DNA from: a virus
Lineage: Duplodnaviria > Heunggongvirae > Uroviricota > Caudoviricetes
IMG/VR virus record: IMGVR_UViG_2713896908_000007
Strand: one strand, 5' to 3'
Length of the DNA: 64,000 bases
Position numbers and translations under genes: made by a program. Of this stretch, positions 27,347 to 27,678 are shown piece by piece; within the stretch, counting starts at the first letter, position 1; the number at the start of each line of letters is the position of its first letter. The notes under the pieces are model-generated. The model saw only the letters and a list, made by a program, of their open reading frames with translations. It had not been told where the DNA came from and did not search any database.

Positions 27347-27363
27347 AAATTTATTAGAGCAAA
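27347..27363. promoter_or_regulatory. C1-type operator at the kilA-repL promoter
   Basis: AAATTTATTAGAGCAAA, 16/17 to the consensus, about 70 bp upstream of the kilA start. Confidence 0.6.
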
Positions 27364-27409
27364 TTTTTCTGGCTCGATCCAGATCGGGTTGGTCGATCTG
27401 CTCAGAAAC

Positions 27410-27436
27410 CTGCCAGTTTGCTGGCAGGTTTTTTTG
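27410..27436 (+). terminator. rho-independent terminator for a short plus-strand transcript antisense to the kilA leader
   Basis: CTGCCAG-TTTG-CTGGCAG hairpin followed by TTTTTTT; no plus-strand gene upstream. Confidence 0.6.
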
Positions 27437-27469
27437 TATAAGGCTTTTTTCAATGTGGATTTGTGGCTG

Positions 27470-27507
27470 GATAAAGCGAAAAAGGCCACAGGTTTTACCC
27501 TGTGGCC
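27470..27507 (-). terminator. rho-independent terminator on the minus strand
   Basis: GGCCACAGG-TTTTAC-CCTGTGGCC hairpin with T-rich tract on the minus strand. Confidence 0.5.
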
Positions 27508-27561
27508 TGTTCGGGCGCAACGCGCTGCTGTTACACTGCGAACTAACGCCCTTCAATGTTG

Positions 27562-27678
27562 TTATGCAATGTGGAGAAGTGAGGCAATCACTGATGCCAA
27601 CACAGAACTTGAAGCTCCGATGATGACAGGAACAATGATGTTGGTCACAATCCACTTGCAAGCTTTTTGAAGAGTCAT
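27562..27678 (-). CDS. 38-aa hydrophobic peptide (possible small membrane toxin-like ORF)
   Basis: MTLQKACKWIVTNIIVPVIIGASSSVLASVIASLLHIA; lies between the IS end and the minus-strand terminator; below the track cutoff. Confidence 0.3.
   Translation of the reverse strand: MTLQKACKWIVTNIIVPVIIGASSSVLASVIASLLHIA

Follow-up and report, generated by a model that had tools for sequence, protein, structure and literature searches.

A cassette homologous to the ldr/rdl repeats adjoins the P1-type kilA-repL control region of a phage-plasmid

We analyzed 64,000 nucleotides of the IMG/VR virus record IMGVR_UViG_2713896908_000007 (hereafter the window), a P1-like phage-plasmid in which all tested segments are 100% identical to the Escherichia albertii plasmid NZ_CP117651.1, and concentrated on the interval between the genes kilA and ant. 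In a single judgment that covers both parts jointly, this interval (27222 to ~29010) very probably consists of two unrelated units lying side by side, namely the known control region of the P1 lytic replicon and a cassette that, judged from its sequence, is homologous to the ldr/rdl (LDR) repeats at the level of the RNA scaffold and encodes a diverged peptide outside the Ldr protein family as currently defined. An earlier note on this DNA had treated four features as one kilA leader: a C1-type operator, a plus-strand hairpin, an opposing minus-strand terminator and an open reading frame (ORF) of 38 codons. All four are present at the reported positions, and the operator and the antisense terminator do belong with kilA. 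The opposing terminator, which is real, and the ORF belong instead to the separate cassette, for which P1 has no counterpart since P1 homology stops at 27435, and the terminator would end an LDR-like toxin mRNA. The module as described in that note was, moreover, incomplete: its toxin promoter, leader and antitoxin small RNA (sRNA) gene are located beyond an insertion sequence (IS), at 28797-29000.

A cassette homologous to the ldr/rdl repeats

While the P1-type kilA leader is found in ~510 PLSDB plasmids, only 21 of them carry sequence beyond 27436. The IS is absent from 17 of these 21, in which the empty site reads ccgcaTAC/TTGCAAC (e.g., in the IS-free relative L004), and ~480 bp, ORF included, separate the terminator of the antisense RNA P53as from the last codons of ant. 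One IS-free cassette is carried by pRHB25-C13_2 of E. coli RHB25-C13 (CP057476). From these alignments, 27436 to ~29010 is an accessory cassette that a minority of P1-like phage-plasmids carry inserted between the P53as hairpin and the stop codon of ant. The cassette found no match in the phage collection, and an exact 20-mer from its leader box retrieved only P1-like cassettes among IMG/VR contigs, where a scan with an ORF-derived 16-mer gave mostly chance matches. A metagenome scan with the leader box added a single new lineage (L138). Public annotations (L002 2867-3091, minus strand; L003 2843-3241, plus strand; P0001) place spurious "hypothetical protein" coding sequences over the P53as region and the cassette, and neither the 38-codon ORF nor the sRNA is annotated in any of the three. 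The cassette is made up as follows, in window coordinates.

27473-27508, minus strand: intrinsic terminator of the predicted toxin mRNA (stem 27508-27483, 10 bp, 7 GC, tail TTTTCGCTTT)
27509-27522, minus strand: conserved 3' box, CGUUGCGCCC in mRNA sense, in invariant columns and complementary to the 5' box at 28927-28946
27562-27678, minus strand: 38-codon ORF of a putative type I toxin, MTLQKACKWIVTNIIVPVIIGASSSVLASVIASLLHIA, with the Shine-Dalgarno (SD) sequence GGAG at 27686-27689, 7 nt before the ATG
27696-28793, plus strand: IS481-family IS of 1098 bp, with TAC duplicated at 27693-27695 and 28794-28796 and a transposase ORF at 27754-28881
28797-28825, plus strand: Rdl-like antitoxin promoter TTGCAA-17-TATCCT, abutting the IS target duplication and invariant with the K-12 rdlA and rdlD promoters
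28832-28893, plus strand: Rdl-like antisense sRNA of 62 nt, made up of a 5' tail of 16 nt and a terminator hairpin with T6, with its start placed by analogy to K-12 rdlD
28839-28841, minus strand: start codon of a 20-codon leader ORF, inside the Rdl target; the leader ORF is MSEQQEDSRKQLLLQVCGAS in IS-free copies
28927-28964, minus strand: conserved 5' leader box GGCGCAACGUUAUGCGGGGG (28946-28927) and 5'-terminal mRNA hairpin (28963-28949)
28972-29000, minus strand: putative toxin promoter TTGCCA-17-TACGAT (9/12 in the scan), with a start near 28965

Independent evidence for homology comes from an nhmmer profile of the LDR repeats, which contains 76 distinct classical modules only, all with 35-aa Ldr peptides. 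These were gathered, one genome per species, by scanning for the rdl promoter motif, present at 79 enterobacterial LDR loci. The profile matches the IS-free cassette L004 over nearly its whole length (E = 4.4e-34, hmm 45-457), and it matches the window on both sides of the IS, at 28797-28998 (E = 1.1e-21), a segment that includes the putative toxin promoter, and at 27470-27564 (E = 8.5e-12). It has no match in P1. Distant-mode blastn with the IS-free cassette found a 4.5-kb ColE1-type Pantoea plasmid and a Lelliottia plasmid, mainly upstream of the ORF, and both loci have a small hydrophobic ORF at the corresponding place. A plus-strand segment of the Lelliottia locus scores 50.5 bits with the Rfam rdlD model, thereby reaching the gathering score. 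The same blastn mode did not reach the chromosomal LDRs of 5,426 E. coli genomes; the link to these required the Lelliottia intermediate, Rfam and the profile.

In a five-way alignment of the P1-like, Pantoea and Lelliottia copies with K-12 LDR-A and LDR-D, blocks of invariant columns coincide with the terminator of the toxin mRNA, a box reading GGGCGCA, the region around the start codon, both rdl elements (promoter TTGYAA-17-TATYCT and hairpin GCCCYCG...CGRGGGU4), an CCCCCGCA(TA)ACRTTGCGCC box, the 5' hairpin and the toxin -10. The terminator of the cassette (-24.6 kcal/mol, z = -5.5), which lies inside the profile match at 27470-27564, aligns with those of LDR-A and LDR-D, and the putative toxin -10 aligns with TAGAAT of LDR-D. 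In K-12, rdlD starts at the seventh nucleotide after its -10, 49 nt upstream of the ldrD ATG; the corresponding distance here is 53 nt in IS-free coordinates.

The cassette shares with the K-12 LDRs its DNA scaffold, terminator, rdl promoter and hairpin, the position of the predicted sRNA on the 5' side of the ORF, a leader that is long and structured, and a peptide whose N-terminal half is collinear with Ldr, with P17 and G21 aligned. It differs in its peptide, which has 38 residues instead of 35, in a longer 5'/3' duplex, and in being present as a single copy on phage-plasmids and small plasmids, whereas the K-12 copies are chromosomal and in tandem. Because the scaffold matches while the Pfam Ldr_toxin model and the Ldr signature fail, we file it as an LDR scaffold homologue with a non-member peptide. 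As far as its sequence can be compared, with T1TAdb outside the comparison, the cassette is a previously unannotated LDR-type module on mobile elements.

The 38-codon frame and its predicted RNAs

Modeled on the intact copies, the cassette would work as follows. A sigma-70 promoter just 3' of ant would drive a highly structured mRNA of ~390 nt whose 5' and 3' ends pair, so that the ribosome-binding site (RBS) of the 38-codon ORF is sequestered, and which is predicted to stop at the minus-strand terminator. From the opposite strand, a 62-nt Rdl-like RNA would start 53 nt upstream of the toxin ATG and, being perfectly complementary to the leader, may block toxin synthesis by analogy with RdlD and ldrD. 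In K-12, LdrD is toxic upon overproduction and RdlD counteracts it (PMC4147584). The part of the mRNA that RdlD overlaps is the leader, not the RBS, and the proposal of a hok/mok-like mechanism is as yet unproven (PMC4147584, PMC8594479).

RNA folding is in line with this scheme. The 392-nt mRNA of the IS-free copy (L004 3044-3435, minus strand) has a predicted fold of -164.9 kcal/mol (z = -7.7) in which GGCGCAACG at the 5' end pairs with CGUUGCGCC at the 3' end and a helix formed with the 3' untranslated region (UTR) occludes the SD and AUG of the toxin. The two complementary boxes (GGCGCA / UGCGCC core) occur together in 72 of 81 classical modules, in 12 of 19 modules with a 30-aa peptide and in 10 of 11 with the 38-aa class, and in the latter the duplex is longer, with 10-11 bp instead of 7-8 bp, via changes on both sides. 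As for the Rdl-like sRNA, its fold is -25 kcal/mol (z = -3.9), and at one pair of its stem 81 distinct sequences have C:G and 8 have U:A, none being changed on a single side. RNAalifold run on the sequence-only alignment recovered just four stem pairs. Taken as predictions, these results support a full-length mRNA that is closed and inert, together with a cis-antisense RNA directed against its leader. The LDR mRNA boxes close the predicted fold in the manner of tac/fbi in hok.

The resemblance to hok/sok of plasmid R1 goes further, since that system is also plasmid-borne and its antisense RNA likewise targets the leader and not the toxin RBS (PMC4147584, PMC8594479). Two more likenesses are the leader ORF of the P1-like copies, which overlaps the toxin start, and the full-length mRNA predicted to be closed by 5'-3' pairing. 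The two are nevertheless distinct: the Rfam sok model gives 17.7 bits, where its gathering score is 59, there is no Pfam match, and the peptide has no relation to Hok. In IS-free copies the stop codon of the leader ORF overlaps the toxin ATG as TAATG, and in the window this ORF reads into the IS. Whether it has a mok- or ldrX-like role is uncertain, because it is not conserved in Pantoea or L138, and we treat such a role as no more than a possibility.

The ORF itself runs from 27678 to 27562 on the minus strand and, as the earlier note had described, encodes a single hydrophobic segment (GRAVY 1.44; 2.28 in the top 19-residue window). Its position in the LDR alignment is the slot of the Ldr toxin, which lends substance to the guess of that note that the peptide is type I toxin-like, and we regard it as the putative type I toxin of the cassette. 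The ORF and its SD (spacing of 7-8 nt) are kept in the Pantoea plasmids L005 and L060 and in the metagenome contig L138. Across the three diverged sequences of this class the frame is kept, with one in-frame indel and 13 invariant residues (M1, A6, C7, K8, W9, I14, G21, S25, V26, S29, I31, H36, and A38). Comparing the P1-like copy with either outgroup gives a dN/dS of 0.27-0.29, a ratio measured with synonymous sites near saturation (pS 0.64-0.65). An hhalign comparison of the 38-aa class with the classical 35-aa peptides (Ldr35) runs collinear and ungapped from residue 1 to residue 27 and brings P17 and G21 into register, at a probability of only 53% (E = 1.3e-4). A protein search with a 43-aa N-terminally extended query against 5.8 billion clusters returned one mis-called 69-aa E. 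coli protein.

Three classes of peptide occupy this slot of the scaffold: the classical Ldr35, a 30-aa class and a 37-38-aa class. The last is restricted to P1-like plasmids, two small Pantoea plasmids and one metagenome contig, and the 30-aa class is found in Kluyvera, Atlantibacter, Lelliottia, Pseudescherichia and relatives, often in tandem. An example of the 30-aa peptide is MTFKEALLLAVVTSVVGPVLVALIRHFFKF (L006 2394-2486, minus strand), and further members are in L014, L023, L028, L042, L048, L072, L083, L088 and others. This class has no Pfam match, yet the neighboring sRNA reaches the Rfam rdlD threshold.

In the window the cassette is split by an IS481-family element. Because the empty site is seen in IS-free relatives, the element can be delimited as 27696-28793 with its TAC duplication. 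Its ends are TGTGTA.../...TACACA, and full-length copies (1-1098) are present in 1073 E. coli genomes. The transposase has rve, rve_3 and helix-turn-helix (HTH) domains and scores 217 bits with NCBIfam transpos_IS481 (E = 2.9e-64; cut-off 224), and RefSeq copies are annotated as IS481. The left end, which the earlier note had rightly placed next to the ORF, is about 15-17 nt upstream of the toxin ATG, and the right side abuts the Rdl -35. Consequently, the promoter, leader, Rdl target and 5' box lie on one side of the element and the ORF with its terminator on the other, and the Rdl-like gene and its promoter are left intact. The transposase ORF has no stop codon inside the IS and runs 88 nt into the flank, through the Rdl-like gene, to a stop at 28879-28881. 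In two other copies of the IS the annotated coding sequence overruns the end by 7 and 49 nt, so the C terminus of the transposase varies with the insertion site.

A second insertion has hit the promoter side of the module. In the IMG/VR contigs L089 and L090, an IS1 end (GGTAATGACTCCAACTTATTGATAG...) interrupts the spacer that separates -10 and -35 in the putative toxin promoter (equivalent to 28987/28988 in the window), and the break at query position 468 in the matches to plasmids NZ_CP104510.1 and NZ_CP190335.1 is probably the same insertion. Both elements uncouple the ORF from its promoter and both spare rdl. Two different promoter-side insertions fit a costly gene, on small numbers.

Several results weigh against the view that the ORF is a working, LDR-derived toxin. 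The P1-like copy L004 aligns over its full length with Rfam rdlD (RF01813) at 21.1 bits only (E = 0.034), against a gathering score of 50. The peptide finds nothing significant in NCBIfam, as is also the case with PHROGs and PADLOC, and Pfam Ldr_toxin (PF13940) has no match to three variants of it at E values up to 10, whereas the LdrD control gives 6.5e-27. The Ldr/Fst signature, a conserved Trp after the transmembrane helix followed by a charged cluster (PMC2887945), is absent from the peptide, which ends ...ASVIASLLHIA. Its diversity is thin, with three diverged lineages only, and because dN/dS is 0.88 between the two outgroups, the signal of purifying selection is modest. Pantoea, L138 and most classical LDRs have no conserved ATG-initiated equivalent of the leader ORF. 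Finally, our scan predicted no minus-strand terminator inside the IS481-family element, so that read-through from the toxin promoter across the IS could reach the ORF, and for this reason we only infer that the ORF is inactivated in the window.

The alternative that survives best, which we consider rather unlikely, is that the LDR scaffold was kept and its 38-aa product is a harmless small membrane protein, e.g., a modulator of some membrane function of host or phage, whose level the sRNA merely tunes. The failure of every Ldr family test and the lack of a charged C-terminal tail speak for it. Many small hydrophobic proteins of enterobacteria are, in addition, non-toxic. Set against this, the mRNA is predicted to be locked with a sequestered RBS, a usual feature of type I toxins, the ORF has twice and independently been cut off from its promoter by an IS, and the slot that the ORF occupies belongs to a scaffold that has always been toxin-bearing where tested (LdrD/RdlD, PMC4147584). 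Very unlikely is a second scenario, in which the ORF is untranslated and the RNAs alone matter, e.g., by forming a transcription insulator that separates the immI operon from the lytic replicon. The non-coding blocks are indeed more conserved than the ORF, the nhmmer profile leaves the ORF region of the window unaligned, and a strong minus-strand terminator now stands between ant and P53, the promoter of kilA. These points are countered by the 37-38-codon ORF and its SD, which are kept in three lineages despite near-saturated synonymous sites, and by a single in-frame indel and 13 invariant residues. That the ORF and terminator are passengers of the IS481-family element, an option raised by the earlier note from adjacency only, is refuted and deserves practically no credence: the ORF lies outside the IS ends set by the empty site and by full-length copies elsewhere, and the IS did not bring it because at least 17 IS-free plasmids carry it at the identical place. 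We retain the putative type I toxin of an LDR-homologous cassette as the best account of the ORF.

The P1 control region and neighboring features

The other unit of the interval, together with the surrounding genes, comprises the following features, in which P1 names come from the annotation of GenBank AF234172.

25605-26447, minus strand: repL
26477-27277, minus strand: kilA
27222-27250, plus strand: PaskilA (P53as) promoter TCGACA-17-TATATT, by annotation transfer; 10/12 with TG in the scan, the best promoter-like site
27258, plus strand: P53as start site, transferred from the P1 annotation
27258-27435, plus strand: P53as antisense RNA, ~178 nt, complementary to the 5' end of kilA, the P53 promoter and Op53
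27347-27363, minus strand: C1 operator Op53/OrepL, TTTGCTCTAATAAATTT, overlapping the -10 of PkilA (P53), at a position identical to OrepL
27353-27381, minus strand: -10 and -35 of PkilA (P53), with the -35 at 27376-27381, by transfer from P1
27376, 27382 and 27395: Dam GATC sites, by transfer from P1
27406-27435, plus strand: intrinsic terminator of P53as, with an 11-bp stem and T7; the last P1-homologous sequence
29018-30064, minus strand: ant, with the C4 RNA and its a1/b1 targets located upstream of it

Positions 27250-27435 are 98.4% identical to annotated P1, and homology breaks off at the T-run. A megablast of the same segment against phages gave 98-99.5% identity to P1, P7, SJ46, RCS47 and others, all matches ending at 27435. 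The P1 record annotates PaskilA ("former P53as"), OrepL ("former Op53"), PkilA ("former P53") and three Dam sites, as well as a start site for an "RNA antisense to 5' region of kilA," and these map base for base onto the window by alignment. The C1-type operator of the earlier note, TTTGCTCTAATAAATTT, fits the C1 consensus at 16 of 17 bases and coincides with OrepL/Op53 of P1. Sites with at most three mismatches to this consensus number seven in the window, against 0.35 expected, a count reached in none of 100 shuffles. The six others are at 6731-6758 (an overlapping inverted pair), 11287-11303, 30597-30613, 57717-57733 and 62861-62877, and the one at 30597-30613, upstream of c4, is the equivalent of Op51.

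The plus-strand hairpin (AAACCUGCCAG-UUUG-CUGGCAGGUUU at 27406-27431, with a T7 run at 27429-27435) is stable, with -22.4 kcal/mol and z = -6.2, and no plus-strand ORF precedes it. It ends what the earlier note had suspected to be a short RNA antisense to the kilA promoter region. This is the published P53as (PaskilA), whose RNA has a predicted fold of -56.3 kcal/mol (z = -4.5). A simple terminator scan missed both plus-strand terminators, which folding confirmed. A transcript of ~180 nt was reportedly described by Heinrich and colleagues in 1995, in agreement with the predicted ~178-nt antisense RNA. By analogy with P1, C1 bound at Op53 would repress P53 and with it kilA-repL, and the convergent P53as RNA would cross P53 and terminate at the T7 hairpin. 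Every element is present as in P1, from the operator, the two promoters and the Dam sites to the start of the antisense RNA and its terminator hairpin. The difference lies beyond the hairpin, where the ant stop codon follows after 7 nt in P1 and after ~1.6 kb (cassette plus IS) here. Since its promoter and start site were already annotated in AF234172, the antisense RNA was known, and 27222-27435 is, by this correspondence, the standard control region of the P1 lytic replicon, with no novelty.

Other cargo is visible in and around the window. On the Salmonella plasmid NZ_CP077703.1 (L007), a 62-bp remnant of an Rdl-like hairpin, 82% identical, lies at 2501-2562, where it adjoins a relE/parE type II toxin-antitoxin (TA) pair located 3' of an antirepressor gene with a KilAC domain and an upstream C4 RNA. 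The region 3' of ant may be a recurrent site for cargo and TA systems. At the 3' side of repL, where P1 carries rlfA/rlfB, the window has a 171-aa ORF (25007-25522) and an 83-aa hydrophobic ORF (24696-24947), both on the minus strand. Relatives have the corresponding ORF annotated as an outer-membrane beta-barrel protein, and 24696-25522 is a further cargo difference from P1. The window also contains, on the minus strand, two tRNA genes and a match to the sRNA family STnc100 (50.3 bits; gathering score 47), together at 4488-4560, 5307-5422 and 5998-6070.

Significance for LDR modules and P1-like plasmids

The ldr-rdl systems have no reported plasmid homology and have been treated as chromosomal, not spread horizontally (PMC2887945). 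That P1-like phage-plasmids and small Pantoea plasmids carry a cassette with the LDR scaffold departs from this chromosomal-only view. For annotators, it accounts for a recurrent unannotated gap between ant and kilA in P1-like plasmids, in which the peptide escapes the Pfam and NCBIfam models and gene callers miss the ORF.

A broader idea, which we put forward as unlikely in all its parts, is that the LDR RNA scaffold serves as a portable chassis for interchangeable small hydrophobic peptides, with the 38-aa class as a mobile version on phage-plasmids and ColE1-type plasmids. As the cassette directly follows ant in P1-like elements and no minus-strand terminator is predicted between the two, derepression of immI might, under this idea, co-transcribe the toxin and override Rdl control. 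A membrane toxin would then be linked to the lysis-lysogeny switch or to plasmid addiction, and the recurrent promoter-side IS insertions would reflect selection against its cost. The cassette also offers a natural comparison for defining which features of an Ldr-type peptide are required for toxicity, and its predicted 5'-3' closure is a route to asking whether ldr mRNAs are regulated like hok.

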